A program made the position numbers and the translations under genes. This document shows, piece after piece, positions 14,776-64,000 of a DNA stretch of 64,000 bases. This stretch comes from an uncultured Candidatus Saccharibacteria bacterium (GTDB taxonomy: Bacteria; Patescibacteriota; Minisyncoccia; Phycocordibacterales; UBA6899), in assembly GCA_964469335.1 (NCBI GenBank), contig CAYXYK010000001.1, positions 142,501-206,500 of the forward strand. The letters run 5' to 3'. The stretch's first letter is position 1. Each line of letters starts with the position of its first letter. The notes under the pieces are model-generated. The model was not told where the DNA came from. It worked only from the letters and a program-made list of their open reading frames with translations, and searched no databases.

Positions 14776-15849
14776 TTATGTATTCATGATATTACGAAGT
14801 GCGAGTCCAATCGCGGCAGTGTACCCATGCGACTCGTGCGCGGAAAGCGGAGGAACATATTTTTCGAATGTACATACATTCACCCAAGGATTTGCGATCT
14901 TCACCTTGACGTCGAGTGCCATGCCGAGAAACTCCGCAATTCCCTTCAGGTTCGCACCACCACCGGTAAGGTAAACGCATTCGATGTTCCCACCGACCTT
15001 ATCGCCGTGATGCGTCTGCCAATACGAGTAATGCCGCAAAAGACGAGTGCGCAGATCAGCGACAACGGCAAGCATGGCCGCACGCAATTCTTCTTCTTTC
15101 GCTCCGCCAATGAGTCCGTGCTTCACTTTGAGTGCTTCAGCTTCTTCATATGTCACCTTAAGCGACCGTTCGATCGACTGTGTCATGTTGTGTCCCCCGA
15201 TATCGAGCGACGCGGAGAACTGCACAACGCCGTTAGCGGCTACGAAGACATCGGTGACCATCTTTCCAATGTCGACAACCATGAATGTTCCATTGTCTCC
15301 ACGAGGAATGATCGAACGTGCCATTGCCTGCGACTCGAACTCGAATGCTTTCGGTGTCACTCCAGTGCCATGAAAGATCTCAAGGTATCCTTCCACCGCA
15401 CTTCGCGGCAACACAGAGACAACGACATCCATACTTTCTTTCTTTTGCCCCGATCCTTCGCCGACGACGATGTAGTCAAAGGTTGCCTCTGCCCCGGAGA
15501 TGGGGACATGTTCTTCTAGGGAGAGCTCGATCGTATCTCGCACCTCACTATCAGCGACTCGCGGGATCCGCATATTCGCTAAATATGCCTGCTCTTCGGG
15601 AAGTGAGACATTCGCAAACGAGAGCTTGTACTCGAACGCGAGGGCAGCGATGACATCCTGGAGACGCTTCTTGTCTTGCACATGCCCCTCTGCGGTAACG
15701 ATCAGCGGAAAATTCCTCGAGGCATAGCGAGTGACCTCAAGTGTGTCGCCGCGTTGCTCAAGTTCGATAAAACGAACCGCATCTGCGGATATATCAAGAC
15801 CGACCGCAGGCATCGACAGGAATTTAGGTGCGGAAAAGAAGGACATCAT
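14776..15849 (-). CDS. pilM: PilM (actin-like ATPase of the type IV pilus inner membrane platform)
   Basis: FtsA/PilM fold motifs (VGLDISADAVRFIEL...). Confidence 0.8.
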   Translation of the reverse strand: MMSFFSAPKFLSMPAVGLDISADAVRFIELEQRGDTLEVTRYASRNFPLIVTAEGHVQDKKRLQDVIAALAFEYKLSFANVSLPEEQAYLANMRIPRVADSEVRDTIELSLEEHVPISGAEATFDYIVVGEGSGQKKESMDVVVSVLPRSAVEGYLEIFHGTGVTPKAFEFESQAMARSIIPRGDNGTFMVVDIGKMVTDVFVAANGVVQFSASLDIGGHNMTQSIERSLKVTYEEAEALKVKHGLIGGAKEEELRAAMLAVVADLRTRLLRHYSYWQTHHGDKVGGNIECVYLTGGGANLKGIAEFLGMALDVKVKIANPWVNVCTFEKYVPPLSAHESHGYTAAIGLALRNIMNT

Positions 15850-15892
15850 CCACCAGTATACAGTATCTTATATAGAGAATGTAGTGGTTACA

Positions 15893-16219
15893 CTACGAAA
15901 GCGGGCTTCCAGGGAGAACTTCTTTGTCGGGATGGAGCAATACTGCGCCACCGTCTGAGGTCTTCACCGCAAGAATCATCCCATTGCTTTCTAGCCCACG
16001 AAGTGTGCGAGGCTCAAGATTGGTGACGAACGGGCAACGTTTGCCGATCAACTGCTCCGGCTGGTAGTATTCCCGAATTCCAGAAAGTATCTGTCTCGGC
16101 TTTTCTTCACCGAAATCCACTTCGAGACGAAGCAGTTTGTCTGCCCCCTCGACGTACTCCGCGACGAGTATCGTGCCGATCTTCATTTCTATTGCCTTAA
16201 AATCATCGATTGTTGCCAT
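15893..16219 (-). CDS. tRNA-binding protein (CsaA/Trbp111, EMAP/Myf domain)
   Basis: DFKAIEMKIGTILVAEYVEGADKLLRLEVDFGEE is the typical OB-fold tRNA-binding domain. Confidence 0.7.
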   Translation of the reverse strand: MATIDDFKAIEMKIGTILVAEYVEGADKLLRLEVDFGEEKPRQILSGIREYYQPEQLIGKRCPFVTNLEPRTLRGLESNGMILAVKTSDGGAVLLHPDKEVLPGSPLS

Positions 16220-16264
16220 ATGGAGAGAGTATAGGGTATTTCATATCGAGTATCCAGCAAGTGT

Positions 16265-16678
16265 TTATATTTCGCCATCATGCTCTCCCTGTGGCGGCGG
16301 ATTCCACTTGTTCAAATAGGATTGCAGAATGATGGCGGCAGCAGAAGCATCATTCTCCTTATTGTCACCCTGGATATGCGTTGCCTCGCGAGATGAGAGG
16401 ACTTCGTTCATGAACACGACCGGCAAACCGCTTGCAGTCTTCAATTCTTCGGAAAACGGAGTGATCTGTCTCATGATCGCATTATGGGTATTCTTGAAAT
16501 CAAGAGATTCGCCGATGACAATAGTCTCGACTCCCTCATCTTTGCAGATCTTCACGATATGAGGAACAACGGAACGAGAGTTGAGAATGACCCGAAGCGG
16601 AAACGCCATTCTCCCCCCATCATCAGAAGTCGCGAGTCCTATTCTTTTTGTCCCATAGTCGATACCGATGTATTTCAT
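16265..16678 (-). CDS. ruvX: Putative Holliday junction resolvase / pre-16S rRNA nuclease YqgF
   Basis: MKYIGIDYGTKRIGLATSD N-terminus. Confidence 0.8.
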   Translation of the reverse strand: MKYIGIDYGTKRIGLATSDDGGRMAFPLRVILNSRSVVPHIVKICKDEGVETIVIGESLDFKNTHNAIMRQITPFSEELKTASGLPVVFMNEVLSSREATHIQGDNKENDASAAAIILQSYLNKWNPPPQGEHDGEI

Positions 16679-16792
16679 TGCCTTATTTAGACAGGTCACA
16701 ACCACTTTTGCAAACTGCTTGCAAAAGCGTACTTATCATCTAGTCTGTAATATCAGAACGTACATTCCACCCTTACTACAAAGGAGACGATT

Positions 16793-17995
16793 GTGAAAAT
16801 CATCGTTATCACTCACGCTCCCGCGAATCGAGAAGTGACCGATCGCCTCTCAGGGCACACCGCGATCTCATTTGTCGCACAGAAGTCACCCGATGGCATG
16901 CTCGAACTGATCAAAGCCCACTGGGAGAATGTGTCGATCATCTACTTCGACCCCACTGCCCTTCTGTTCGCCGCAAGCGAACGGCTGGTGTGGGAAACAA
17001 CAAGAAAGATCAATGAACTGATCGGGAAAAGACGCAATCAGGTCATCCTCATCCTCGGACTTGAAGACGGTATCAGCGGGCTCAGCGGCAAATCACTATC
17101 CGACAGACTCACAAGAGAGCAGGTCAACATCGGAATGGTCGGAAAGCGAGACTCGTCACAGATCGCTACGTTCATCAACAGTGTGGCGACGCAATTCGGT
17201 CCGTATGTGGAAAAGTTCGGCGCTGTGTTCGAACCACCTGAACCATCAAGAATGCTGAGGCGCGGGCAAGTACGAAGCAACGGGCACGACCACACCGCCG
17301 CCGACGCAAAAAAGTCGGATACTCCAGTATTGCCAAGAGCGAGTTGCCCTGCCCCAACTCCAGTTGTCGCGGAAGCCCCGCGCAATGACAGACCGACCGA
17401 AGAAGCTGCAACGACCGCGTCTCCGCCTCAATCGACCGTGTCTGAAATCACGGTTCCGGCTACAGTGATTGCACCCAAGCAGGCACCGTCTGTCACTCCA
17501 ACAGCAAAGTCAGCGACGAGGAGTCGGCAGCATGATGTTGCCGAACTGGTATTAGACCTCGACCTCATCGAATCTGCGCTCACAGCAGGGCTTCATGCAA
17601 TGTTCGAAGTGCTGCGCAAAGGCATACCCGAATCAGGGAAGGGAACGAACGCAAGTGAGCCGGAGGCTGCACGACCGTCACCAAGTCAGACGGTCGGCGA
17701 AGCGGGGAACAAGTTCACCGTCAGAGTGGTGGGAAGTGTCGAGAAGGAGCATGGTGATTCGACCCGTGAGAGGCTCGTCCTGAACGGGAAGGAGGTGATT
17801 CTCGTAAGGAGAGCACGGCGGATGCTTGAGGCGCTTGCCACTCACGGCTCATGCAGCTTGAACGGCATCTTTCCAAGCGCAACGCCACAGGCAGTCGCAT
17901 CATTCGTTTGGGAAACGAACAGGAAACTGGCCAAAGCGCAGTTGCCGATCATGATCCACGCATCGAACAAGGAAAATCGTTTGCACGTCGATTAG
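16793..17995 (+). CDS. Hypothetical protein with a Pro/Ala/Thr-rich low-complexity linker
   Basis: No recognisable catalytic motif; N-terminal roughly 130-aa globular region, disordered middle. Confidence 0.35.
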   Translation: MKIIVITHAPANREVTDRLSGHTAISFVAQKSPDGMLELIKAHWENVSIIYFDPTALLFAASERLVWETTRKINELIGKRRNQVILILGLEDGISGLSGKSLSDRLTREQVNIGMVGKRDSSQIATFINSVATQFGPYVEKFGAVFEPPEPSRMLRRGQVRSNGHDHTAADAKKSDTPVLPRASCPAPTPVVAEAPRNDRPTEEAATTASPPQSTVSEITVPATVIAPKQAPSVTPTAKSATRSRQHDVAELVLDLDLIESALTAGLHAMFEVLRKGIPESGKGTNASEPEAARPSPSQTVGEAGNKFTVRVVGSVEKEHGDSTRERLVLNGKEVILVRRARRMLEALATHGSCSLNGIFPSATPQAVASFVWETNRKLAKAQLPIMIHASNKENRLHVD

Positions 17996-22687: not shown

Positions 22688-22745
22688 CACTTTATCAAGT
22701 TTCTGAAGTGACTCAGAAACTTGTAGAGTAAGTTCTTTGAGAAAT
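22688..22745 (+). repeat. Composite hairpin motif copy a (CTTTATCAAGTT-hairpin-AACTTGTAGAG..AGTTCTTTGA)
   Basis: ctttatcaaGTTTCTGAagtgacTCAGAAACttgtagagtaagttctttgagaaa. Confidence 0.8.
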
Positions 22746-22750
22746 GTTCC

Positions 22751-22859
22751 ATCTAAGTTTTAGGATCGTGCGAGTGATGCATCGCTCGCAGCATCCTAAA
22801 ACTTAGGCTCCCCACGTGAACGGCCCGTATTGGGTACGACGTAGGGGTGAGGAGCAATC
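22751..22859 (+). promoter_or_regulatory. Structured 110-nt leader (54-nt palindrome, then ggggtgaggag RBS) upstream of ORF 22860
   Basis: About 95 percent identical to 24158-24265; palindrome ctaagttttaggatcgtgcgagtgatgcatcgctcgcagcatcctaaaacttag. Confidence 0.6.
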
Positions 22860-23294
22860 ATGAGCAACGCAACTGAAATCATGGGCCTGCTGCATTCCTA
22901 CTACAATAAGGAGACAGCGAAGGTCAGCAGTGGTGAGGTGGATCCAAGGAATCACTTCATCAGCTGCAGAATGGACAAGGTCATTCTTCTGGGTGTGTCA
23001 TCACCAATCCCTAAGGGATGGAAGAAGGCCGGGCCTCGGCAGCTGATTTGGCTGGCTAGCCATTCTCAGTACATGCCGGTGGAGTGGAGAGGGTATGAGC
23101 TTTTGTTCGACGAGGTGGTCTTCCATGACACCGAAGCGGATAAAGACTGCATGCCTAACTCACCTCCGTCACTCTGGGTGCCGACATTGTCGTATAACAA
23201 TGGAAGCATACCCGGCTGGAACAACAAAAGGATCTTCCTTAGTTGTCGGCCGGAGACACATCCCAACATGCTTAGGTTGTGTGTGCCAGAGTAG
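22860..23294 (+). CDS. Hypothetical cassette protein A (144 aa)
   Basis: Preceded by the structured leader; no recognisable domain. Confidence 0.5.
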   Translation: MSNATEIMGLLHSYYNKETAKVSSGEVDPRNHFISCRMDKVILLGVSSPIPKGWKKAGPRQLIWLASHSQYMPVEWRGYELLFDEVVFHDTEADKDCMPNSPPSLWVPTLSYNNGSIPGWNNKRIFLSCRPETHPNMLRLCVPE

Positions 23295-23496
23295 GTGTCC
23301 AACCGCAGCGCTAGCTGACTGCGGTATAAAAATAAACTAGTAGTGGCCAACTCGAGGGCCTGCACAACGTGTGATGCTCTGTAGAAAGAGCGTGGCACGA
23401 GGTGAGTCGCTTCCATACGGCATGGAAAGAAGCGGCAAGCGCTATGACTGGTAGATATGCGCGAACTACCCACCCGCCCGAGCGTGATCGGTGCAT

Positions 23497-23585
23497 GGGG
23501 AATCGGTTGATCGTCATGTGACGATTGATTCCCCTCTTTATCGGGCTCATCACACAGATATGGTGGGTCAGTAGAGACAAGTTCT
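23497..23585 (+). repeat. Composite hairpin motif copy b (degenerate), with hairpin A GGGGAATCGGTTGATCGTCATGTGACGATTGATTCCCC
   Basis: tctttatc-gggctcatcacac...gtgggtc-agtagag-acaagttctttgaa. Confidence 0.6.
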
Positions 23586-23638
23586 TTGAATCAATCGCGA
23601 AATTCTTCGCACTGCACCTCGGGTACTGGGGTAAGGAG

Positions 23639-23797
23639 ATGAGCATGTGGAAATGGGCTGTCATCGCCCTCTGCGGCTTCCAAGCCGTGTGGGCAGCTCA
23701 CTATGTTGTCGAGAATAATGGTTGGTCGATCTTCGCGGTCGCAGCCATCATCATCGACATCCTTGTACTGCTTGCAGTCACAAAGGAGAACAGGTGA
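23639..23797 (+). CDS. Small single/double-TM peptide (52 aa)
   Basis: RBS aaggag; MSMWKWAVIALCGFQAVWAAHYVVENNGWSIFAVAAIIIDILVLLAVTKENR. Confidence 0.35.
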   Translation: MSMWKWAVIALCGFQAVWAAHYVVENNGWSIFAVAAIIIDILVLLAVTKENR

Positions 23798-23825
23798 GTA
23801 CACCCGGCCGGGAGGCCCGAGTATT

Positions 23826-23935
23826 GCGCGCTTGGGAACAGAAGTCGCATTGGGGGAAATTCATTTCCCCACTTTATCAAGTTCATCACATGGGTTGTGA
23901 ACTTGTAGAGTGCAGTTCTTTGAAAACGGCCTGTC
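23826..23935 (+). repeat. Composite hairpin motif copy c, with upstream box CGCTTGGGAACAGAAGTCGCATT and hairpin A GGGGGAAATTCATTTCCCC
   Basis: ctttatcaagttcatcacatgggttgtgaacttgtagagtgcagttctttgaaaa. Confidence 0.8.
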
Positions 23936-24070
23936 TGATGCCTTGTTGCACCGACTCCCAGGAGCGCTGCAGCAAAAATCAAATGGCTGATCACCATTTG
24001 ATGCTGACTATCGGTACTTGAACAAAACGCCGAGACGCCCGCAGATAAGGAAAGTATATCTGTGGGAGCG

Positions 24071-24150
24071 GAGGAAGCCTGCAACTTCCTCCTCTTTATC
24101 AAGTGCATCACATTGGGTGGTGCGCTTGTAGAGAAAGTTCTTTGAGAATA
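24071..24150 (+). repeat. Composite hairpin motif copy d, with hairpin A GGAGGAAGCCTGCAACTTCCTCC
   Basis: tctttatcaagtgcatcacattgggtggtgcgcttgtagagaaagttctttgagaata. Confidence 0.8.
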
Positions 24151-24157
24151 TCTCCAT

Positions 24158-24265
24158 TCTAAGTTTTAGGATCGTGCGAGTGATGCATCGCTCGCAGCAT
24201 CCTAAAACTTAGGCTCCCCACGTGCACGGCCCGCATTGGGTACGGCGTAGGGGTGAGGAGATAAC
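24158..24265 (+). promoter_or_regulatory. Structured 110-nt leader (second copy) upstream of ORF 24266
   Basis: Near-identical to 22751-22859, including the RBS. Confidence 0.6.
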
Positions 24266-24697
24266 ATGTCCAAGATCTATGTTTCACACTTTCATGGTTT
24301 CAACGACCTGGAGGCCACCAAGATGGCTGTGTCAGGCATTGAAGCAGAAAGTGAAAAGGAACTCCGACTGAAGCTTAGGGGTCGCCTCCTCGCCAACCTT
24401 GACAGCATTGTCGAAGAGTTGATGGAGAAGACCTTCAGCCTTCAGTATGTGACCCCGTTGGGTCAAAGGGTTTATCCCGAGGTGTACGAGATGATGCAAA
24501 GCCTGCCCAAGGGGTATACGCTCATCGAGTACACCTACCAGGTGAGGCCTGGGTGCATCGACTATCGAACGATGTACTACCAGGCCCCTGAAGGGATCGA
24601 GGTCGATGGCAAGACCTTGAGGGAAAGCGAGTTCTATCGGGCCGGAGGTTACTACGGAAGTAATCCTCCATGGGCCGTGAACTGCACCCGACTCTGA
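24266..24697 (+). CDS. Hypothetical cassette protein B (143 aa; unrelated in sequence to protein A)
   Basis: Same leader as 22860; the 3' flank 24698-24960 is homologous to 23295-23555. Confidence 0.5.
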   Translation: MSKIYVSHFHGFNDLEATKMAVSGIEAESEKELRLKLRGRLLANLDSIVEELMEKTFSLQYVTPLGQRVYPEVYEMMQSLPKGYTLIEYTYQVRPGCIDYRTMYYQAPEGIEVDGKTLRESEFYRAGGYYGSNPPWAVNCTRL

Positions 24698-24898
24698 CGG
24701 AGTAACCGCAGAGCTTGTTCGAACGACTGCGGTATAGAAATGAACAAGTAGTGGTCAACTCGAGGACCTGCACATTGCATGTCGCCCGTAGAACGGCAGA
24801 TGCACAAGGTGAGACCGTGGATACAGCTAAAACCATGGACAAACGCTTTACTGGTAGATACGCGTGAACTACTCGTCTGCCAGTACGTGAACTGTGCG

Positions 24899-24998
24899 CG
24901 GGGAATCGGTTGATCGTCATGTGACGATTGATTCCCCTCTTTATCAAGTTTCTGAAGAAATTCGGAAGCTTGTAGAGATGAGTTCATTGAATCAGTGT
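24899..24998 (+). repeat. Composite hairpin motif copy e, with hairpin A GGGAATCGGTTGATCGTCATGTGACGATTGATTCCCC
   Basis: tctttatcaagtttctgaagaaattcggaagcttgtagagatgagttcattgaatcag. Confidence 0.8.
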
Positions 24999-30985: not shown

Positions 30986-32938
30986 ATGAAAAAGTTTTCT
31001 CTTCTCATCATTCCGTTATTCTTTGCTCGTACTGCTAGTGCAGCGTGTGCCAGCCCTGACCAATATGAGCTTCTGGTACCTATCGGATCACTTTCTGGCT
31101 GTGTTGATCTCGGCACGTATATCAAGGGAATGTTCGAAACTATCATCGGCATAGCAGGCATTCTTGCTGTGGTAATGATCGTGATCTGTGGAATAAAACT
31201 CATGACGGCGGGAAGTGCTGGGGGGAAGAGCGAAGCAAAAGATTGCATCACGAACGCACTATTCGGAGTACTTCTTGCGGTCGGATCATGGCTGATCCTG
31301 AATACCATCAACCCGCAACTTCTTGCGGCAAAACCTTCTGCAATAGGTGTACCTGTCGCACCACTTGCACCATCCACTCCGACCCCCGCCACTCCTTCAG
31401 GAACTACGATCTGGCAGCCGGGTCCAAGTTGTCCCGCGGTTGCAGGAAGCATCGTCACCAAAGCACCAGATGTGTACTGTTCAGGAGTGGCACCTACCGC
31501 AACCTCTATCTGTTGTCAGTACGTCACCGTACCGATGACTCCGCCAGTTGGAACACCGCCGATACCGGTTCCACCAGTGGGAACACCCTATGTACCCGTC
31601 CCAATGAGCGGTCCGGTTTGGATCGACAGTGCAACAACCAACGTAAGTGAAGGTGCGGGAAGTGTGACGATCATCATCCGTCGTGGGGGTGACATCCTCG
31701 GAACGGTTGACTACAGTATCACGAATGACACTGCAACGGCAGGTGCTGATTTTGGGTCGATCTCCGGTACCCTGACATTCCCTCCCGGAGTGAACCTCCT
31801 TTCAATCACCATTCCCATCCTCGAAGATGCACTTGTCGAGGGGAACGAGCGATTCATTCTCAATATCACGAATGCTACCGCAGGGCTTTTCCTTGGGGCT
31901 CCCCGGGCACTTCCAATCACCATTGTCGACAACGACGTCGCTACCCCTGACGTCACTCCCCCGGTCGTGAGTATCCTCTATCCGGTGAATGCGGTCGGGT
32001 TGGTCACCACTTCGCCGAGCATCAGCGCACGAGTCAGTGTCTCAGAAGAAACCAAGTTATACCGAGTTGACGTCTACTCGGTCCGAGCGAGTACTTCAGT
32101 GAAGATCTCGAATACGATCGCATGTCTCACTACGCCTGTCTGCCCGACACTCGGCGGGACATTCAACATCGCATCGACCACTCTTGGTCCGATGTACAAT
32201 GAGTACTACAATCTTGTCGCTCGAGGATGCGACGTAGCCGGAAACTGCGGATATGCAACGACCTCGATCGGATTTACCGCACTTTGTAACGACACCACGG
32301 GTGCGACAACAAGTTATCGCTGCTTTACTCTCCCAACCGGTGCCGGGGCGACCACAAGTCCTACCGTGCCGGGGCGAACGAATGCACATCTGATCAAACT
32401 CAATTCTCCGACCGGAGGCGGCACAGTATCTATATCAACCATCGCTCCTTATTTCGATTATTACGGAGAGAGCTGCACAGACATGTGGGGCAACTCACTG
32501 TGGTGCGGATACGGCTGTGCTGCACCGAGCTATGACACCTGCAATCTTGTTCCCACAACTCCAATTTGCGGAGGGATACCCTGTGTTTATGGATGTGCAG
32601 TAGATCACTGGACCGCGTCATGCAATCTCACGCCGCCTCCTCCGATGTGCGGAGGAATATCCTGCCCGAGCGGCTGCGCGATCAGCCCGGATTTCCCTAT
32701 GTGCTTCATCCCTGAGCCCGTCGTGATCGCCTCACTTGCCACAAGACCAAATGACCTGAGTCTTGGAGCCCCTTGCGGCAACGGTGGGTCATTCCCAGGC
32801 GCAACAACACTGAATATCACTTTTGGCACATCGAGTCCTGCGTGTGTCCTAAAGCCTTATTTCAACTATTTCCTCGACATCACTGCAAGTGACGGAAAGC
32901 CACACAACTTCCAGATCAATTACAATTGGGCACCGTAG
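30986..32938 (+). CDS. Large secreted protein: N-terminal VirB2/TrbC-pilin-like two-TM module, Calx-beta domain, Cys-rich C-terminal repeats
   Basis: The N-terminal 120 aa are paralogous to 57043-58272 and 58490-59605 (CASPD.Y.LL.PIG...GIAGILAV.MIVICGI.LM..GS..GKS.AK.CITNA.FGVLLA.GSWL.LNTINP); Calx-beta-like VDYSITNDTATAGADF...GTLTFPPG....I.I.DA..EGNE.F.L. Confidence 0.5.
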   Translation: MKKFSLLIIPLFFARTASAACASPDQYELLVPIGSLSGCVDLGTYIKGMFETIIGIAGILAVVMIVICGIKLMTAGSAGGKSEAKDCITNALFGVLLAVGSWLILNTINPQLLAAKPSAIGVPVAPLAPSTPTPATPSGTTIWQPGPSCPAVAGSIVTKAPDVYCSGVAPTATSICCQYVTVPMTPPVGTPPIPVPPVGTPYVPVPMSGPVWIDSATTNVSEGAGSVTIIIRRGGDILGTVDYSITNDTATAGADFGSISGTLTFPPGVNLLSITIPILEDALVEGNERFILNITNATAGLFLGAPRALPITIVDNDVATPDVTPPVVSILYPVNAVGLVTTSPSISARVSVSEETKLYRVDVYSVRASTSVKISNTIACLTTPVCPTLGGTFNIASTTLGPMYNEYYNLVARGCDVAGNCGYATTSIGFTALCNDTTGATTSYRCFTLPTGAGATTSPTVPGRTNAHLIKLNSPTGGGTVSISTIAPYFDYYGESCTDMWGNSLWCGYGCAAPSYDTCNLVPTTPICGGIPCVYGCAVDHWTASCNLTPPPPMCGGISCPSGCAISPDFPMCFIPEPVVIASLATRPNDLSLGAPCGNGGSFPGATTLNITFGTSSPACVLKPYFNYFLDITASDGKPHNFQINYNWAP

Positions 32939-39508: not shown

Positions 39509-39668
39509 CACCCAATGATACCGCAAATTAAAAAACCTCCAATTGAGGGGTTTTCAGCATACATATCTTTGGGCAGGTCACGAATATTTTCTGCTGAAAA
39601 TTTCGCGACCCCGCCTCGCGCCGCCGCGCTCCGGCTCTAAAAACTTCCATGCTTTCAGTTTTTAGCAC

Positions 39669-39715
39669 CTTTTGGGGATTTAGGAAAATCCCTCAAAAGG
39701 TCTTGCGTGAGAAGA
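39669..39715 (+). repeat. 46-bp palindromic direct repeat, copy 1
   Basis: caccttttggggatttaggaaaatccctcaaaaggtcttgcgtgag. Confidence 0.8.
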
Positions 39716-39770
39716 CCGGAGCTCACTGAGGATTCATATCGCGCACTCGCCCTACAGGCGCAGTACACCT

Positions 39771-39817
39771 TTTGGGGATTTAGGAAAATCCCTCAAAAGG
39801 TCTTGCGTGAGTGACAG
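39771..39817 (+). repeat. 46-bp palindromic direct repeat, copy 2
   Basis: Identical to copy 1; 56-bp spacer. Confidence 0.8.
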
Positions 39818-56299: not shown

Positions 56300-57043
56300 T
56301 TACTGCCGCCTTCTAATTCGGTAGAACACAAACGCAAACACAAGGATCAGGACTCCTCCAACGAATGAGAGGATCGTTTTTGTGTCGATCGACCCCCCTT
56401 TTACTATAGAGCCTTCCCCTGTGGTTATATATGAGGTGTCGGTCGCAGAAGGAGTTGCTGATGAAGGTGGAGCTACGATGTCAGGTGTCGGCGAAACAGG
56501 GTTAGGTGTCGAAACAGGCTCTATCGGCGGGCTTATTACTACTGCGTCTGGTGGAATGGGGCAGTCAGCCGGACAATTAAGATAGGTTTCCCCGCTTTTA
56601 GCGTCACATATGTTGTTGTCGTTGCAAAATGACGAGTCTTTCACTGACACAGTAAACAACATCCTCCCCCCTTTTTCATAAAACGAGACATGGTCAGCGT
56701 TCGCAAAGTACGGGGCACGGACACTCATGATGCTTTTGCCGAGTGAGACTACCGTAGATGTAGGAGCCATGAATCCAAATCGGGCCTCCTCTCTGTTCTT
56801 CCCATTAAACACGATGCCATAAAAATCTGATTCATCACTTTTAAATTCGGGAATGAACTTCATCGGTACTGGGGAATATTTGTCTTTGACCCCTTCCTCT
56901 ACCTGTAAGGTGTTTTGCTTATATTCCAAATGAAAAACATAGATCCAGTCTTCGCTATCAACCATGGCATGAACGAGCATCGGTGTGAATAGTATTGTTA
57001 TGAGGAGAGTGGTGATCTTTTTCATATATGGTTCTTGTTTCAT
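56300..57043 (-). CDS. Secreted protein with Pro/Thr-rich stalk and C-terminal TM anchor plus basic tail
   Basis: Signal peptide; ...SIDTKTILSFVGGVLILVFAFVFYRIRRRQ C-terminus. Confidence 0.4.
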   Translation of the reverse strand: MKQEPYMKKITTLLITILFTPMLVHAMVDSEDWIYVFHLEYKQNTLQVEEGVKDKYSPVPMKFIPEFKSDESDFYGIVFNGKNREEARFGFMAPTSTVVSLGKSIMSVRAPYFANADHVSFYEKGGRMLFTVSVKDSSFCNDNNICDAKSGETYLNCPADCPIPPDAVVISPPIEPVSTPNPVSPTPDIVAPPSSATPSATDTSYITTGEGSIVKGGSIDTKTILSFVGGVLILVFAFVFYRIRRRQ

Positions 57044-58272
57044 TAGTATCCTGGGTGGTTTGTGCAGTACAACACATTTGTTGCATATTTTCGAGTCCCA
57101 ATCAATCCGCTGTTGCAGACTTTGTGGGCATTGTCATCATAGAGGCACTCCCATTGTCGAACCTGCGTATGTCCCGCATCACAACTCGTGTCACTTCCAC
57201 ATGATGCCGAGTCCTGGCATCTCCCCGCCCCCGCATTGTATCCCGCCGCAAGATTTCGGACATCATTTCCACAACTTCCGGTGAGTGATTTGACGTACTC
57301 AGCGGCAATGCAGATGCTTTTGGGCCAATTCTTCTCTTCTGCAAGCCACCCAAGAGTGATGGTGTCAGTGACTCCACATGAACCAGAATTCTTGAACTTG
57401 TTCGCAGTTGCAGGAGTGAGGTGGATTGGCCCTGCCGACAGACCGTCAAAACCCACCACATCAGAAGGGCGTGCGACACAGCTCGACTCCTGAAGTATCA
57501 GTGCTTTCAGAAAATTCGCCGTTGCGACACCGCTCGCGTAGGTGTTCACCATCGGAACGAATCGGGCACAATTCGGATTCGTACATTGTCGGAAGGTCTC
57601 TTCGCAAAGATTCATTCCTGACTGCGGACAAGTGACACTCCCCGCCGTCGTGACTGGGGGAGGAGTCGATCCTGGAGGAGCGGCAACTTTCGTTGGCTCA
57701 TAACACTTACTCTGGATGAGATAGTGTGCGGGATCTGCCTGGAAATTACTACGAATGTTATCGCACTGTTCACATGTGTCAGCACTTTGGAATTTCACAT
57801 TTCCGGTCGTATTGTCCCGGTATTTGAAATAGCAGCCCGGTCCGGTCGGATTCGGCTCGGTCGTTGCAGTGGAGGCAGGAGTGGTGAGGGTAACCGCATT
57901 GACCAATGTCTGTGTATTTTTCAGCAAGAGTGGATTGATGGTGTTGAGGAGGAGCCATGAGCCGATCGCTAGCAGCACTCCGAATATCGCATTGGTGATA
58001 CACTCTTTTGCTGCACTTTTCCCCGATACCGACCCGGAGGCCATCAGTTGGATGCCGCAGATGACGATCATGATGACCGCGAGGATCCCCGCGATGCCGA
58101 TAGTGGTCTCAAGAATACCCTTGAGATAGTTCGCGAGATTCACACAACCAGTAAGGGTACCGATCGGAGCAAGGAGATCATATTCGTCCGGACTCGCACA
58201 GGCGGCGAATGCAGTGTTGGTAGTTAATCCAAGAACAAGAAACGGCAAATGACGGAATTGGCGTATGGTCAT
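57043..58272 (-). CDS. VirB2/TrbC-pilin-like N-terminal module fused to an SLT-family lytic transglycosylase (VirB1-like)
   Basis: N-terminal two-TM module shared with 58490-59605 and 30986-32938; C-terminal LILQESS (catalytic E-S) and AAGYNAGAG (SLT AYNAG motif). Confidence 0.6.
   Translation of the reverse strand: MTIRQFRHLPFLVLGLTTNTAFAACASPDEYDLLAPIGTLTGCVNLANYLKGILETTIGIAGILAVIMIVICGIQLMASGSVSGKSAAKECITNAIFGVLLAIGSWLLLNTINPLLLKNTQTLVNAVTLTTPASTATTEPNPTGPGCYFKYRDNTTGNVKFQSADTCEQCDNIRSNFQADPAHYLIQSKCYEPTKVAAPPGSTPPPVTTAGSVTCPQSGMNLCEETFRQCTNPNCARFVPMVNTYASGVATANFLKALILQESSCVARPSDVVGFDGLSAGPIHLTPATANKFKNSGSCGVTDTITLGWLAEEKNWPKSICIAAEYVKSLTGSCGNDVRNLAAGYNAGAGRCQDSASCGSDTSCDAGHTQVRQWECLYDDNAHKVCNSGLIGTRKYATNVLYCTNHPGY
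57901..58217. repeat. 317-bp module identical to 59231-59547
   Basis: Encodes residues about 18-125 of both pilin-like proteins; exact DNA identity. Confidence 0.9.
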
Positions 58273-58489
58273 GATGGCGTATACGTTAAGTATACTATAA
58301 ACCTATCGTGCAATCCCTCGAGCGTTATATTCTAAGTGGATATCTAAGGCAGATTCTTGTCATAAAACAGGAAATCCCGTGAATCCGGAGCTTGAGTTGT
58401 GGGAAGGGGCAATATTCGCCCAGGTTTGCGCCACGACTACGCCCGATGTACTCAGAACATAGAATCGGACCAGGTGATGGTTATACCAA

Positions 58490-59605
58490 TCAGATTTGTG
58501 TACATGCTTTCTGGAACAAGCCTGCACTTTTCCCTGCAGGTGCGGTGGTTCCGTCTCGACATACATGCCAGTGAGGAAATTTTGAGCCGCCAGTCTCATC
58601 AGTGAACCAATATCCATTGTAAAGCCATTTTTGGAAGCAGTATCCAGCCTTTACATCACAAAAAGACGGGTTCGCTTTCACGGTGGCATTCGTCTTGATG
58701 AAATTATATAGCGTGTCAGTCTTTGAGAGGTCGAAGACAGGAATCCCTGAGCCATGACTCGAGTGCCCCCCTTCTGTCCCCCCGGTGATCGTGACTTTGC
58801 AGCCGCATGCGCTTGCAAGGCTTTTTAGGTCACTAATAAGGGTACCATCAAGTCCGTCGACATTCGTGCAGTTCACCCCTCCGGTATTAGTCGGGGCGCA
58901 GGAATTCTTATTGATATAGACATTGGAGTTACTCGAACTTGTGCACGAGTCATTCCCGCAAATGGAGTTCCTTGTCGCCACCTCGCCAGCTGGCTGGGCG
59001 GACTTTCTGATCTCAAAACAACCCGGGGTCCCGTTAGGGCCGTTCTGGATCACCGATCCATTATCCGCTTCTTTTTTTTGAAGCTGAAGACAGGATTCCG
59101 ATGTCTCATATTTCGGGCTGTTCTTGATGTTCCCTGCACTATCACGATATCTGAAATACCAACCTGCTTCTGTCGGCATCGGGGCAGTCGTCGGACCAGC
59201 GGCCGGCGGAGTCGTTAGTGTGGTTGCAGTCACCAATGTCTGTGTATTTTTCAGCAAGAGTGGATTGATGGTGTTGAGGAGGAGCCATGAGCCGATCGCT
59301 AGCAGCACTCCGAATATCGCATTGGTGATACACTCTTTTGCTGCACTTTTCCCCGATACCGACCCGGAGGCCATCAGTTGGATGCCGCAGATGACGATCA
59401 TGATGACCGCGAGGATCCCCGCGATGCCGATAGTGGTCTCAAGAATACCCTTGAGATAGTTCGCGAGATTCACACAACCAGTAAGGGTACCGATCGGAGC
59501 AAGGAGATCATATTCGTCCGGACTCGCACAGGCGGCGAATGCAGTGTTCGACGGAGCTAATAAGGCGAGGATTGGGAAGAATGTGTAAATCGCAAATCTG
59601 CTCAT
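58490..59605 (-). CDS. VirB2/TrbC-pilin-like N-terminal module fused to an M15-family (VanY / L-Ala-D-Glu peptidase-like) cell wall peptidase
   Basis: EGGHSSHGSGIPVFDL (SxHxxGxAxD-like) and FPHWHV (HWH) metal-binding motifs in the C-terminal domain. Confidence 0.5.
   Translation of the reverse strand: MSRFAIYTFFPILALLAPSNTAFAACASPDEYDLLAPIGTLTGCVNLANYLKGILETTIGIAGILAVIMIVICGIQLMASGSVSGKSAAKECITNAIFGVLLAIGSWLLLNTINPLLLKNTQTLVTATTLTTPPAAGPTTAPMPTEAGWYFRYRDSAGNIKNSPKYETSESCLQLQKKEADNGSVIQNGPNGTPGCFEIRKSAQPAGEVATRNSICGNDSCTSSSNSNVYINKNSCAPTNTGGVNCTNVDGLDGTLISDLKSLASACGCKVTITGGTEGGHSSHGSGIPVFDLSKTDTLYNFIKTNATVKANPSFCDVKAGYCFQKWLYNGYWFTDETGGSKFPHWHVCRDGTTAPAGKSAGLFQKACTQI
59231..59547. repeat. 317-bp module identical to 57901-58217
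   Basis: See the paired copy. Confidence 0.9.
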
Positions 59606-59615
59606 TGGTTAATCG

Positions 59616-61049
59616 TTATTTCTTTCTGCTACTAGAGGTTGCTGTGGCCGAGGGGAGACTTCCTATCGCATCGCGCATTTCCTCAGGAGTAAGTTCAGGG
59701 AGGACGACCCCAGTGCTTTCTTCCAGCTCGTCACTGGTAGTATATTTTGATTTTTCAAGTCTCATCGACCAAAGAGTCGAGTCATTCTTGTCGACAAAAA
59801 AGAAATGGTCTTCCGTTTTGTCCAGGAATGGGATGAAGACATCAAAAGTCCTACCGGTTTCCTTCTTTGGGTCTGCGAGGAATACAAGGTCGGAAAGATC
59901 AGTATTAATCGTCCAAAACGTATCTGAGAATGAAAGTGCACCCTGATACCAATCATCTGGTATCTGCGCGCGCGGAGTCGATGCGAATGCTCCGCAGTAT
60001 ACGCGGACCGCATTGAGCGACCAAGCGCATTTTTCCGGAAGGGTTGCAAGTTGGAGCGGTGCGGTGTGAGTGACCACTCCTTCATCCTGGCTGAAACCCT
60101 GTTTGTCATAGAAACTCAAAATGGTACTGCCGACAATATTCTCGCTGTAGATCACCCGCTCACCTTTTGCGGTAGCAAGTGTGGTCAAGCCATTCTTTTC
60201 CCTAATGATGCGTGCGAGTGATTTATTGCTTGTATTGTAGAGGTAGGAATAGCCGAATGCATTTGCCGACGCTTTCGAGGTAAGAATGACATTCCCGTCA
60301 TCAAGCATCTGTGGAAGCCACTCACTGAATGAATTACGGAAAACCTCCACCCCTACTTTAGAGGTGATATTGACGACTGTTCCTGAAACCCCGTCTTCAA
60401 CGGGAAGGAGGTAGAATAGTTTCGTTCCGTCTGCTGAAACACTTACTGAAGCGATATTGTCAGGGAGCTGTGGGTCGAAGGTTTTAAGTGATCCGAGTGC
60501 GTCGGGGGTAATCTCAGAAGGAAGGTTGAGGTCTGCGATCTGTGTCTTGATGATGTCTTTTCTTGCGAGGTCGTCGTGCTTGAGGTAGCGCAGTATGACC
60601 GTGTTCCCTCCTAATGCCCAATAGGCCTCATAAATGCGCGGGATGACGGTATTGGTGATCTGGGTGGAAACACCAGTTGTGGGGTCAACATCATATACGT
60701 AGCCGTTCTCTCGTGCGATGTATCGCACTGCTGTCTTTCCATTCTTCACAATGGAAATCGCTCCAGCGACTTGGATTGTCGAAAGTTGCCTGAAAAGTGG
60801 CTCACTCGCTTCCCCTGTTGTCCCTCCTCCGTCTCCTTCAGTTCCGTTCCCGCCCCCGGTGATCTGGCTATTCGTTGGTCTTGGTACATCCGTACCGCTA
60901 TTCCCAAACAACGCGCCGAATGATGTGGTGCCTGATCCGTCCGTCTTCCCTCCCTTTAAGAGGAAGAATGCGGCAATGAGGACGAGTAGAACAACCGCAA
61001 CGATTGTAACGACGATGACGATCTTTTTTTGTGGGTGCTGCTCTTCCAT
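59616..61049 (-). CDS. Membrane-anchored secreted protein (N-terminal TM, Gly/Thr-rich linker, beta-rich ectodomain)
   Basis: Topology only. Confidence 0.4.
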   Translation of the reverse strand: MEEQHPQKKIVIVVTIVAVVLLVLIAAFFLLKGGKTDGSGTTSFGALFGNSGTDVPRPTNSQITGGGNGTEGDGGGTTGEASEPLFRQLSTIQVAGAISIVKNGKTAVRYIARENGYVYDVDPTTGVSTQITNTVIPRIYEAYWALGGNTVILRYLKHDDLARKDIIKTQIADLNLPSEITPDALGSLKTFDPQLPDNIASVSVSADGTKLFYLLPVEDGVSGTVVNITSKVGVEVFRNSFSEWLPQMLDDGNVILTSKASANAFGYSYLYNTSNKSLARIIREKNGLTTLATAKGERVIYSENIVGSTILSFYDKQGFSQDEGVVTHTAPLQLATLPEKCAWSLNAVRVYCGAFASTPRAQIPDDWYQGALSFSDTFWTINTDLSDLVFLADPKKETGRTFDVFIPFLDKTEDHFFFVDKNDSTLWSMRLEKSKYTTSDELEESTGVVLPELTPEEMRDAIGSLPSATATSSSRKK

Positions 61050-61064
61050 AAGTTATAACTATGA

Positions 61065-62060
61065 CTATTGTCGATTTTCTTCAGGGAGGCTAATAGTTGT
61101 CACACTTTGTCCGTCTTGAAGCAAGTGACGAGTGGTCTGGACGCGAAGTGTTGCCTTGAATTGCTGAGCCCTCAGTTGTTCTTCGTCAGTTCCTTTTTTT
61201 GAAACGAGAAGGAGCGTTGGGTCGAGTCCTGGAACTACATTGCTGTTTCCGAGTCTCCATGTGTATATCAGAACCCCCTCATCGACATCCTCTTTTGAAA
61301 AGAAATACGGCACTGCTTTGATGGTAAATTGATTACCCGATCCCGTTACTTCCTTCCCGAGGGCCTTGTTGAAATTGATACCCAATAGAGGTGCTTGCTC
61401 ATAGAATCGAACGACTGCTTCCCCTCCTCTTATGTTGTCAGTGCGTTGTCCCGCCCATTCATCTCCAGGAAGAGATACATCAACTGAGACAGGAACTGGG
61501 GTGTCTGCATAACCCATTTTGATCAGTGCGCTGTTCCTTCCCAACCCTTGACCGACAGTAAGGGTGCGGTTGTATTTCCAGCTGTACATGAACTGCCTCG
61601 GCTCACTTGATGCTTTTCCGTAGCGCGGGATAGCGGTGACTTTGACCAGACTCTTGAACGTCGGGATCGCTTTTCCTTTGTAGAAGGGAGGGGTGTATGT
61701 CTGCGCTTCCCACAGCATGTCTATCTCAGAAGGAGTGATCGTGATCTTCTTTTCTTTTTTTACCCCAAGGTTCGAGATAATGACCGCCGTCAGGTTTATC
61801 ACCTGCCCGAATTCCCCGGTCCTGACCTTTATTGATTTTTCTCCGACTCCCTGCTTGATAGGGTCCTTTTCCTGATACCAGATGATCTCGGCAGAATTGA
61901 GATCTGTGCTAAAGGAATCCAGAGTTACAGTGACTTCCTCATTCTCGCCCGGAGTCTTTGGGTTGAATTTTGCGTTTATGAGATCGATCCCTACCGCGAA
62001 GGAAGTGGTCGGCATAAACACCCCGGCAACAAGAAGCAATGTAAATAGTTTTTTCATCAT
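61065..62060 (-). CDS. Secreted hypothetical protein
   Basis: Signal peptide MMKKLFTLLLVAGVFMPTTSFA. Confidence 0.4.
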   Translation of the reverse strand: MMKKLFTLLLVAGVFMPTTSFAVGIDLINAKFNPKTPGENEEVTVTLDSFSTDLNSAEIIWYQEKDPIKQGVGEKSIKVRTGEFGQVINLTAVIISNLGVKKEKKITITPSEIDMLWEAQTYTPPFYKGKAIPTFKSLVKVTAIPRYGKASSEPRQFMYSWKYNRTLTVGQGLGRNSALIKMGYADTPVPVSVDVSLPGDEWAGQRTDNIRGGEAVVRFYEQAPLLGINFNKALGKEVTGSGNQFTIKAVPYFFSKEDVDEGVLIYTWRLGNSNVVPGLDPTLLLVSKKGTDEEQLRAQQFKATLRVQTTRHLLQDGQSVTTISLPEENRQ

Positions 62061-62686
62061 ATGTATTTTGCCACTTTAACGGCTACACGTGCCACCTTAA
62101 CCACCTTCTGGGTCGTATTCCCTGCTTGTGCGATCGCCTTCACTCCGCGTCCAAAGACGTATGCAGCCACAAACGTCACCGTTGTGAGTGGGAGAACATC
62201 TAAAAACGGCAATGCGTCAACGAAAGCACCAATCGACATGATCACAAGTCGAAGCGCGAATCCTCCCCCGATATACGCGAAGTATGCAACAAGGGTGAAG
62301 TCAATCATGAGCCCAGTCCCCTTATCAAGAAGCTCTGAAAAGATACCAAGCGGAACACCAACAACCGCTCCGGCGACCGTTGCAGAGAGTGCGAGACCAA
62401 GCAAGTCGAGTAATACACTGAAAACATCAACTGTGTCCTTGATGACGGCAATACCGAATACGAGCCAAAATAATACTGGGCCACCTTTGACTTGCATGTT
62501 CCCTGCAGCAGTCTTCGTTTCTTCCCAGTCCTGAGGGGTGGTTTGAGTACCATTGTTCTGCATCCTTCTTGAGTAGGCGTCACGTATCGCACGGCTTCGT
62601 TGTCGTGTTGCTTCCGCGCCTGCTTCTCGCCTCGCGGCGGCCGTCCCCACCTTTACGGTATCGCTTATTGTCGCCATATGCTCCAA
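62057..62686 (-). CDS. Polytopic membrane protein (possible T4SS VirB3/VirB6-like component)
   Basis: Four to five TM helices; position next to the VirB4-like ATPase. Confidence 0.35.
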   Translation of the reverse strand: MEHMATISDTVKVGTAAARREAGAEATRQRSRAIRDAYSRRMQNNGTQTTPQDWEETKTAAGNMQVKGGPVLFWLVFGIAVIKDTVDVFSVLLDLLGLALSATVAGAVVGVPLGIFSELLDKGTGLMIDFTLVAYFAYIGGGFALRLVIMSIGAFVDALPFLDVLPLTTVTFVAAYVFGRGVKAIAQAGNTTQKVVKVARVAVKVAKYI

Positions 62687-62764
62687 TCATTATAACTGAA
62701 TAATGGCGAACATACCGCCTATATTAAGGAAAACTGTTGATAGCCGAAGGCGTTTGTGCTGGCA

Positions 62765-64000
62765 CTACTTTGAGGCAGCAAGCTCTTGCTTCGCCTTCGC
62801 AATAGCGAGCATTTGAGCTGGGTCTGACGAGACGATCTGATCTTCGGTATATGAGGCATACACCTTGATCGCGACATGCTTGAGTCCTGCGAAAAATAGG
62901 CCTTCCCCGACCCCTGATTCGAGCAAGAGGTACTTTTCCTCATCTGTTAGGTGGAATGTCTGCTGGACCAGGTCGATCGTCGTCGGCGACTGTTTGAGAA
63001 GGATCTGGATCGACGAGTTGGTAAGGATCGGAAGTCCATATGGTGAACGAAGGAAGTCGTTGACGTCCTGGGTGATGGTCGCGATCCCAAGATAATATTT
63101 GCGCCCGCGTTTCGCAAGTCCGAAAAGGAATGAGGCGGTGTCTTCGGATTTCATCATCCACCACGCTTCATCGACGATCATCAAGCGTTTTCTGAGCTCC
63201 TTACGCACTGCGGTCCAGATGTGGTGGGTAATGATATACACTGCGACCGGCTTCAGTTCGTCCTCCATATTTCGCACGGAAAATACCGTGAATCGCTTGG
63301 TGATATCAACATTCGTCGGATTATTGAGGAAGCCCGACCAGGTGCCCTTGGTGTATTTCTCGAGACGTTGCAAGATACTCTCGGTGCCGTCCATTCCGGA
63401 AAGTACAAGCTCGAAGTCAGACAGCAGCGGAGGCTCGATTGTCGAGAAATCCGAGTCCCCTGAGATGTCCTTCAGGTTGTATGTTTCCGCAACTGCACGG
63501 TCGATGATCGCATCTTCTTCAGGAGAAAGTCCTCCGAGCATGATGCGGAATAGTCCGACAAGGAAGATGATGTTCGAGCGAAGGACATCCGATGCCGACT
63601 CATCATCACGCGGAACAGGGAGATCAAACGGATTGATGTGGTGTTCCGAGGTCAGTGAGATGTTGAAGTATCTCCCACCGGTTGCTTCTGCGAGGAATTG
63701 ATACTCTTGTTCAGGGTCGATGACGATGACGTCGGCATCGAACATGAGCGTACGAAGGATCTCCAGCTTGGTGGTGTATGACTTTCCGGATCCGGACACC
63801 GCAAAAGTGACCGAGTTGTAGTTCGGCATCGAGAAGCGGTCGAAGAGGATCAGGGAAGCATTATGGCGGTTGATCCCCCAAAGGATCCCTTTGTCCGAGG
63901 TAAGATCGAACGAGACGAACGGAAATATCGAAGAAAGCGGCGCAGAATTGAGTTTGTAGTGCACCTCGAGGTCGTCCGTCATGATAGGAAGAACACTTCG
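62765..64000 (-). CDS. VirB4/TrbE-family T4SS ATPase, C-terminal part (gene continues beyond the window end)
   Basis: Walker A AVSGSGKSYTTK; Walker B with diagnostic DEAW (LMIVDEAWWMM). Confidence 0.7.
   Translation of the reverse strand, partial: RSVLPIMTDDLEVHYKLNSAPLSSIFPFVSFDLTSDKGILWGINRHNASLILFDRFSMPNYNSVTFAVSGSGKSYTTKLEILRTLMFDADVIVIDPEQEYQFLAEATGGRYFNISLTSEHHINPFDLPVPRDDESASDVLRSNIIFLVGLFRIMLGGLSPEEDAIIDRAVAETYNLKDISGDSDFSTIEPPLLSDFELVLSGMDGTESILQRLEKYTKGTWSGFLNNPTNVDITKRFTVFSVRNMEDELKPVAVYIITHHIWTAVRKELRKRLMIVDEAWWMMKSEDTASFLFGLAKRGRKYYLGIATITQDVNDFLRSPYGLPILTNSSIQILLKQSPTTIDLVQQTFHLTDEEKYLLLESGVGEGLFFAGLKHVAIKVYASYTEDQIVSSDPAQMLAIAKAKQELAASK

Follow-up and report, generated by a model that had tools for sequence, protein, structure and literature searches.

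A candidate pair of cell-wall hydrolases on a shared pilin-like module at a Patescibacteria type IV secretion locus

Why should two adjacent genes of a type IV secretion system (T4SS) locus open with the same stretch of DNA and end in two unrelated predicted cell-wall hydrolases? The question is raised by a 64,000-nucleotide stretch of DNA (the window), positions 142,501 to 206,500 of contig CAYXYK010000001.1 in GenBank assembly GCA_964469335.1, from an uncultured Candidatus Saccharibacteria bacterium. The two genes are here called gene B and gene A, in the order in which they follow virB4, and a preliminary description of the window had taken their common part for a VirB2/TrbC-like module carrying alternative hydrolase heads. 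Our preferred explanation, held with moderate confidence, is that genes B and A encode a complementary pair of wall hydrolases dedicated to the T4SS, each placed on a shared VirB2-like (PF18895) module. This explanation draws on domain content, on a hairpin predicted by AlphaFold2 (AF2) and by hydropathy, on genomic association, on recurrence in other lineages and on a signature of gene conversion. Coordinates of the features are collected in Table 1.

The shared module and its two heads

Direct comparison of genes A and B gave a longest common substring of exactly 317 nt, which bears out the identical segment first described. The two copies lie 1330 nt apart and are read in the identical frame. 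The block begins in the signal-peptide c-region (NTAFA, then ACASPDEYDLLAPIG), includes two hydrophobic helices, and ends a few codons past the second of them (...LNTINPLLLKNTQTLV). On its 5' side identity is lost abruptly, and the n- and h-regions of the two signal peptides are unrelated. On its 3' side the linker and a small domain are paralogous (34% identical over 89 amino acids (aa), BLASTP E = 7e-7), and the enzymatic heads that follow are unrelated to each other. The possibility that the repeat is a mobile element or an RNA gene was ruled out, as each of the two genes reads through it in frame as coding sequence, and tRNAs were the only Rfam matches in the window.

The product of gene B can be divided into a signal peptide (aa 1-24), the PF18895 hairpin (25-118), a disordered T/P-rich linker (119-147; 115-135 in the AF2 model), a small alpha/beta domain (148-204) and the head. 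Gene A is laid out in the same way, with a signal peptide, a PF18895 hairpin, a linker and small domain paralogous to those of gene B, and a Cys-rich SLT head. Pfam PF18895 (T4SS_pilin) was matched above its gathering score of 26.6 bits by gene A (30.6 bits), gene B (31.1 bits) and a third paralog in the window (34.9 bits), while PF04956 (TrbC/VirB2) was matched only below threshold (E = 0.03-0.04, 14-15 bits against a cut-off of 27.9). The module is thus a member of PF18895, a family annotated as T4SS pilins. When a profile of 40 modules was compared with the PDB, VirB2 of A. tumefaciens was the best match, though not a significant one (E = 0.37-0.6), and NCBIfam gave weak matches of the module to a 'pilin-like conjugal transfer protein' of Mycoplasma integrative and conjugative elements. 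The suggested hairpin of two transmembrane (TM) helices agreed with the hydropathy profile, which has two hydrophobic segments (aa 59-77 and 92-110), and with an AF2 model (pLDDT 80.6) in which the module helices are predicted at aa 47-79 and 83-113. Within the short loop between the helices K86 is invariant and K90 is present in at least 90% of homologs. The signal peptide has a predicted cleavage site, as read from the sequence, between AFA and A.

Module-only proteins would be expected to have about 100-200 aa, but the three proteins of the window are 371, 409 and 650 aa long, and in them the module is followed by 246-531 aa. Among gene-B orthologs the module is the best-conserved region, with a mean pairwise identity of 62% vs 48% for the head. 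The third paralog had been described as having the same N-terminal module and a head with Calx-beta and Cys-rich parts, and this held: its module shows 73% amino acid identity (BLASTP, 73/100), and Calx-beta was matched in Pfam at 3.4e-16. It shares no long DNA identity with genes A and B, the longest exact match being 10 nt, and its gene is outside the T4SS locus, flanked by ruvA and a Mur ligase gene.

The head of gene B, originally called an M15-type peptidase, matched no Pfam family even at E <= 10, M15 families included, and searches of PDB sequences with the single sequence and with a profile returned only chance matches to nanobody His-tags. A structure model of the head alone was confident (pLDDT 91.6, pTM 0.88), and among 27 homologs of the head the motif TGGTE and residues H281, H284, D292, E337, H345 and H347 are invariant, so that zinc-ligand-like motifs of the types H-x(n)-D and H-x-H (or E-x-x-H) are conserved. 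Profile-profile alignment with hhalign against canonical VanY/M15_4 heads, carried on the same module in other genomes, placed the motifs in register (P = 3.6e-4), the register being that of the S-x-H-x-x-G-x-A-x-D motif and the conserved downstream His of the canonical heads. When the profile of the whole gene B protein was aligned with relatives by hhalign, the module alone was aligned, and the alignments of the head with single-sequence targets were not significant, though the motifs lined up. The confident model, the invariant residues and the in-register profile alignment together led us to assign the head, with moderate confidence, to a divergent LAS-type metallopeptidase outside every defined M15 family. 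The M15 assignment thus survives at the level of a predicted fold and of motifs, and not at that of family, as no M15 family model or solved M15 sequence was matched. Every full-length gene-B homolog with Pfam domains on record carries PF18895, and such proteins are already labelled 'VirB2 (pilin)' by JGI.

For gene A, the SLT lytic transglycosylase recognised in the preliminary description was confirmed. Its head matched SLT (PF01464) with 26-27 bits (gathering score 21.3) and contains both the E-S and the AYNxG motifs, which at the sequence level identifies it as a family-1 SLT lytic transglycosylase. This head had no homolog among 80 related genome loci; one 52%-identical metagenome relative was found on a short contig without useful context, and the window's exact gene A protein is not on record. 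The closest relative with a complete locus is a Ca. Lloydbacteria genome (L003) with a VirB4 92% identical to that of the window. It has the gene-B-type fusion only (L003:14121-15197), with jag directly after this LAS-like fusion, and lacks both gene A and the gene for a 247-aa protein that follows gene A in the window. Because it is absent from this relative and its head has no homolog in the 80 loci, the SLT gene appears to be a recent, lineage-specific addition.

Spread and concerted evolution of the fusion

In the window gene B lies 3.2 kb and gene A 4.5 kb downstream of virB4, of which the window contains the 3' part, with Walker A GSGKS, Walker B IVDEAW and Pfam matches to P-loop_TraG (1.6e-26), AAA_10 and DUF87. 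The locus beyond the window was read from five JGI metagenome contigs of a sister strain (L081-L085). With 358 bits, the full-length 600-aa protein of that strain passed the cut-off of 325 for NCBIfam NF045971 ('VirB4-like conjugal transfer ATPase, CD1110 family'), and its next NCBIfam matches were VirB4_plasma, TraC-F-type and VirB4_CagE, so that the ATPase belongs to the VirB4 family, as had been thought, and is not FtsK or VirD4. The VirB4 of the window is 77-94% identical to those of Paceibacteria metagenome-assembled genomes, and 89-94% identical to those of Ca. Lloydbacteria and related ones. The organism belongs to the Paceibacteria and is related to Ca. Lloydbacteria.

In the sister strain VirB4 is preceded by a 909-aa polytopic protein, a 291-aa protein, a PrgI-like (VirB3) protein and a TrsD/TraC-like protein of 216 aa, and is followed by a small polytopic protein, a 331-aa protein, a 477-aa protein, gene B, gene A and the 247-aa protein. 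Convergent with this operon is the group jag-yidC-yidD-rnpA-rpmH, which adjoins dnaA-dnaN. By its gene content and its place beside dnaA this is the T4SS already published for Patescibacteria, and the original assignment to a T4SS was upheld by the PrgI/VirB3-like, TrsD-like and VirB4 genes directly upstream, partly outside the window. The 909-aa protein gave a weak match, far below cut-off (E = 0.0015), to the VirB6-like CD3337/EF1877 mobilome membrane family. The stretch examined showed no relaxase or coupling protein, and neither the window nor the approximately 5.6 kb upstream of it in L081 yielded a standalone short pilin.

The distribution of the fusion was determined in two censuses. 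In the first, a jackhmmer search of the 80 related loci, 69 of the 80 had a module ORF (open reading frame) on the same strand as virB4 and 1-4 kb downstream of it, an association that argues against a generic membrane anchor unconnected with the T4SS. A tail of >100 aa followed the module in 54 of 77 module ORFs (74 in related loci and 3 in the window). The heads recognised by Pfam in the related loci were NlpC/P60 (4), Peptidase_M15_4/VanY, SLT, SLT_2, SLT_3, 3D, He_PIG and Calx-beta, and most heads on these module ORFs are unannotated. The second census, an exhaustive profile search of 1.84 billion representatives at E <= 1e-3, found 56,649 representatives of the PF18895-like family. Among the best 150 of these, 89 of the 132 newly returned proteins were at least 250 aa long; the heads of these 89 included SLT (5), M15_4/VanY (4), SLT_3 (2) and NlpC/P60 (1), and the gene-B-type head was the commonest partner (27/89). 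When the module was used in a word-indexed protein search, all proteins obtained were of <=226 aa, which made that search unsuitable for counting fusions. For two of the related loci, L038 and L074, the unannotated heads gave no match to PDB sequences, and a glycosidase nature of these heads is a tentative reading of motifs.

Relatives thus carry the module on other heads, and the arrangement is not peculiar to this locus but is the predominant architecture at this position in Paceibacteria. The fusion is widespread in that class and apparently undescribed: in the literature searched these proteins were classed simply as VirB2, and no description of the fusion was found. Some proteins have several modules. 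The matched stretches number 17 in P0161 (1775 aa), 11 in P0162 (1147 aa) and 7 in P0173 (1046 aa), and at L055:13276-14697 two modules stand ahead of the head.

The same distribution bears on whether the heads are merely housekeeping autolysins, with the hairpin as one of several anchors and the proximity to virB4 reflecting conserved gene order near oriC. The third paralog, away from the T4SS, would fit such a role, as would the position of T4SS genes in a conserved origin-proximal neighbourhood (PMC12102498) and the need of Patescibacteria for wall hydrolases in growth and division. We nevertheless consider this quite improbable, as strand and distance from virB4 are kept in 69/80 loci from many Paceibacteria orders despite differing heads, PF18895 proteins are T4SS-linked in 1135 assemblies (PMC12102498), and the analogous hydrolases of Southlakia epibionticum belong to an essential T4SS cluster.

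The 100%-identical tract of genes A and B lies within otherwise diverged, old paralogs. Between the window and the sister strain, which was assembled from each of five samples, these genes differ by 0.3-0.65%, with 5 synonymous and 1 nonsynonymous differences in gene B and 7 and 1 in gene A. Its repeat has two synonymous third-codon changes, each present in both copies (59279/57949, C>G; 59237/57907, A>G), and the repeat allele tracks the flanking strain single-nucleotide polymorphisms (SNPs) in 5/5 sister-strain assemblies. A recent duplication was ruled out, since the flanks are old paralogs and both copies changed together between the two strains.

Tandem pairs with near-identical module DNA were also found in 4 of the 5 other loci having two module genes. 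The pair of L038 (Nomurabacteria), with an NlpC/P60 head and an unannotated head, shares 781 bp at 99.1% identity with an exact run of 758 bp; that of L067, with a 3D head and a head bearing a LAS-like motif, shares 289 bp at 99.7% (exact run 249 bp). The pair of L074 shares 366 bp at 94% (exact run 265 bp), and that of L055 approximately 288 bp at 90% (exact run 101 bp). In all four the 3' boundary of the block lies directly past the module. These comparisons suggest that the module DNA of tandem genes is kept identical by recurrent gene conversion, that is, by concerted evolution. Such conversion accounts for the repeat better than the earlier view of it as an exact copy that is maintained and hence recombinogenic. 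Module-restricted gene conversion in five independent lineages would make a clear natural case of concerted evolution of one domain. In L038 (L038:12256-14004 and 15409-17256) the 781-bp block also covers about 140 aa of an N-terminal extracellular domain before the hairpin, so that this pair has domains on both sides of the membrane module.

One point weighs against taking the identity of the two copies literally. Short-read de Bruijn assemblers collapse repeats longer than k and pop bubbles, and may thereby erase one or two differences between near-identical repeats, so that 'exactly identical' could mean 'at least about 99% identical'. In its strongest form this objection would make the copies not identical, or the tandem a misassembly of strain variants of one gene, and a related contig (L006) does end inside the module while the end of L084 is aberrant directly past the repeat. 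We give such an artefact a very small chance. Six assemblies, that of the window and the five independent JGI assemblies of the sister strain, agree on gene order, differing heads and differing signal peptides, and all five of the latter have the two-gene arrangement with the exact 317-bp repeat. The repeat allele co-varies with the flanking SNPs as described above, the pattern recurs, with a few mismatches retained, in four further lineages taken from other studies, and both ORFs are intact, with mostly synonymous differences between strains. The mismatches retained in other lineages and the 5/5 association of allele with strain indicate that the conversion signal is real. An argument from contig ends was dropped, since L006 is the only contig that stops within the module, L004 and L005 stopping short of the gene. 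At L084:5837-5900 (JGI sample 3300045332; approximately 57811-57874 in the window) the contig leaves gene A 28 nt past the repeat, in the linker. Either the population contains a further linker/head variant, or the repeat gave rise to a chimeric contig end.

A conserved N-terminal module joined to many unrelated heads, with recombination signatures confined to the module, is also what might be seen in polymorphic effectors. The module would then be a T4SS trafficking domain, the released heads would attack the peptidoglycan of a host or competitor, and recombination would swap the heads; the departure of the L084 contig from gene A just past the repeat can be counted in favour, and T4SS effector delivery in Saccharibacteria has been speculated upon (PMC11665869). 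However, no small cytoplasmic immunity-like ORF was found after either head, the genes that follow being gene A and then that of the surface-anchored 247-aa protein, and a Sec signal peptide with a TM hairpin predicts retention in the membrane, not translocation through the T4SS channel. Known T4SS substrates carry C-terminal signals. Moreover, in many lineages the gene-B-type head has been conserved and has stayed with its module in vertical descent, and the differences between strains are mostly synonymous, unlike those of diversifying polymorphic toxins. Such effectors are in our view improbable here.

A proposed role at the secretion system

The T4SSs of Patescibacteria are MPF-FATA-related, origin-proximal and usually without a relaxase, and they include PF18895 'VirB2-like' genes (Wang et al. 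2023, PMC10633639; Quinonero-Coronel et al. 2025, PMC12102498). They are essential for epibiotic growth and are the only monoderm T4SSs with pilin-like genes (PMC10633639, PMC11665869, PMC12857230). The locus of the window resembles them in its PrgI/VirB3, TrsD, VirB4 and PF18895 proteins and in its dnaA/rpmH/rnpA-adjacent position. In S. epibionticum virB4 (SEML1_0008) is followed by SEML1_0007, with a Hedgehog/DD-peptidase domain, and SEML1_0006, with two lysozyme-like domains and a Cys proteinase; these two proteins are essential, and the pilins, six in number, are short proteins of their own (Wang 2023 supplement). A matching order is seen after virB4 in the window, with a protein of predicted DD-peptidase fold and then one of the lysozyme-like class. 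The pilins of Saccharimonadia, however, form short standalone arrays with <=54% amino acid identity (PMC12102498), and their hydrolases are separate and large, whereas in the window the pilin-like module is the N-terminus of each hydrolase and its two copies are DNA-identical.

A second comparison is with the VirB1-type hydrolases of Gram-positive conjugation systems (PrgK of pCF10, TraG of pIP501, CwlT of ICEBs1 and TcpG of pCW3), whose role the pair would fill here and which are likewise encoded in T4SS operons and have an N-terminal membrane anchor. These enzymes have glycan-cleaving (SLT/muramidase) and peptide-cleaving (CHAP, NlpC/P60, LytM) domains (PMC12102498, in part), and the heads on the module in relatives similarly include NlpC/P60, CHAP (weak), SLT and M15. 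A VirB1-type enzyme unites two or three catalytic domains in one polypeptide behind a single TM or signal anchor, whereas in the window the predicted activities are distributed over two genes, whose products both have a signal peptide and a two-helix hairpin of the pilin family, and the peptidase has a predicted LAS-type fold, not CHAP or NlpC. Fused heads of this kind offer an explanation for the reported lack of VirB1.

In the mechanism that we propose, both proteins would be exported by Sec, and the signal peptide would then be cut after AFA. The two long helices would enter the membrane as a hairpin whose conserved Lys-rich loop (SGKSAAKE) stays in the cytoplasm, and because the loop would lie there, the T/P-rich linker of about 30 aa, the small domain and the enzyme would be placed outside the membrane, in the wall zone. 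As the module is a paralog of T4SS pilins, it could dock both enzymes at, or feed them into, the VirB3/TrsD/VirB4 machine, together with the possibly VirB6-like polytopic protein. The SLT domain would cut glycan strands and the LAS-type peptidase would cut peptide stems or cross-links, locally where the channel or pilus crosses the peptidoglycan. The wall that is cut would be the cell's own, and possibly that of an attached host cell. Gene conversion would keep the module DNA identical while the heads diverge or are swapped.

The VirB2/TrbC/TraA pilins themselves share with the module a long signal peptide, two hydrophobic helices, a short basic loop and linkage to a T4SS, but they are approximately 70-120 aa long and have no enzymatic domain, whereas here 250-530 aa follow the hairpin and the similarity is sub-threshold. 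Membership of PF18895, with VirB2 as the best though not significant PDB match, leads to a different reading, an enzyme-armed pilus in which VirB4 would extract the PF18895 pilins into a VirB2-type filament and the heads on its surface or tip would drill or bind the host wall. Identical modules would then be required for different heads to fit one lattice, and the module is indeed more conserved than the heads and is homogenised between paralogs. The lack of a standalone short pilin in the window or directly upstream, the adhesin-like Calx-beta and He_PIG among the heads, and the long disordered linker, which could distance heads from a filament, are all compatible with it. In F and T pili the pilin has both termini on the outside, and F-pilin tolerates small fusions at its C-terminus. 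The pilin array of S. epibionticum is also essential (PMC12857230). However, no Patescibacteria T4SS is known to make a pilus, a VirB2-type lattice would be crowded if each subunit bore a head of 250-530 aa, and short standalone pilins of the PF18895 family are abundant elsewhere and may be the real filament subunits. Gram-positive VirB1-type hydrolases, moreover, act as simple membrane-anchored enzymes. An armed pilus is therefore tenable but unlikely. Equally doubtful is the broader proposal that most Paceibacteria 'pilins' form a polymerised display platform with interchangeable heads (glycosidases, peptidases, adhesins), which would cut the host wall for an epibiotic feeding junction, gene conversion holding the lattice-forming module constant from one head variant to another.

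A conserved N-terminal module with grafted C-terminal modules, and recombination of pilin genes, are known from type IV pilins, namely from the bimodular pilins of Streptococcus sanguinis and the pilE/pilS conversion of Neisseria. Type IV pilins form a separate, unrelated pilin superfamily, however, and conversion in Neisseria diversifies the variable part, whereas here the constant module is homogenised.

If genes B and A do encode a T4SS-dedicated hydrolase pair, the significance would extend beyond this genome. In Paceibacteria, the largest class, the pilin-like module downstream of virB4 is usually the N-terminus of a predicted cell-wall hydrolase, with a tandem pair bearing different heads in some lineages, and a pilin family would be tied directly to the breaching of the wall. 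The predicted catalytic residues provide testable candidates for how ultrasmall parasites open their own wall or that of the host.

Neighbouring genes and other features

Table 1. Features of the window discussed in the text (aa, amino acids; TM, transmembrane segment)
Feature	Position	Strand	Description
Gene B	58490-59605	-	371 aa
Gene A	57043-58272	-	409 aa
Repeat copy B	59232-59548	-	gene B aa 20-125
Repeat copy A	57902-58218	-	gene A aa 19-124
LAS-like metallopeptidase head	58493-58993	-	gene B aa 205-371; Hedgehog/DD-peptidase fold candidate
SLT domain	57211-57519	-	gene A aa 252-354; motifs LILQESS, AAGYNAGAG
Third paralog	30986-32938	+	650 aa; module, Calx-beta and Cys-rich adhesin-like head
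virB4, 3' part	62765-64000	-	ORF 62765-63982 open to window end; C-terminal ~411 of 600 aa
Small polytopic membrane protein	62057-62686	-	168 aa (JGI start 62563) or 209 aa (TTG 62686)
Secreted 331-aa protein	61065-62060	-	predicted signal peptide, hydrophobic segment aa 5-23
477-aa protein	59616-61049	-	one N-terminal TM (aa 10-28), large extracytoplasmic part predicted
247-aa surface protein	56300-57043	-	signal peptide, Cys-containing domain, P/S/T-rich stalk, C-terminal TM anchor

Three proteins are encoded between virB4 and gene B. The small polytopic membrane protein has several hydrophobic segments, a conserved position after virB4 and a gene call in L081-L084, and it had no match in Pfam or NCBIfam. 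The secreted 331-aa protein likewise gave no match in Pfam/NCBIfam family searches, and the 477-aa protein gave no significant family match. The 247-aa surface protein, with TM segments at aa 10-28 and 223-241, is encoded by the last gene of the operon and matched DUF7478 only below threshold. A scan of the locus for promoters and terminators gave results at or below chance level.

The 3' part of virB4 in the window (62765-63982) differs from that of L081 by 85 synonymous and 0 nonsynonymous changes (7.0%), while every neighbour gene differs by 0.3-0.65%, and the dense differences between the strains end near 62800. From the pattern of substitutions, this stretch looks like a divergent allele that was imported by homologous recombination and is under strong purifying selection.

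Two repeat structures were observed elsewhere in the window. Two exact copies of a 46-nt palindrome (CACCTTTTGGGGATTTAGGAAAATCCCTCAAAAGGT...) lie at 39666-39711 and 39766-39811, 100 nt apart, and matched no Rfam family. At 22688-24978 there is a cassette-like tandem unit of about 1.4 kb with conserved non-coding blocks (86-93% identity), in which a hairpin, CAAGTTTCTGA...TCAGAAACTTG, is present three times. These elements surround two unrelated ORFs of approximately 143 aa (22860-23294 and 24266-24697) in a region that is otherwise poor in long ORFs.

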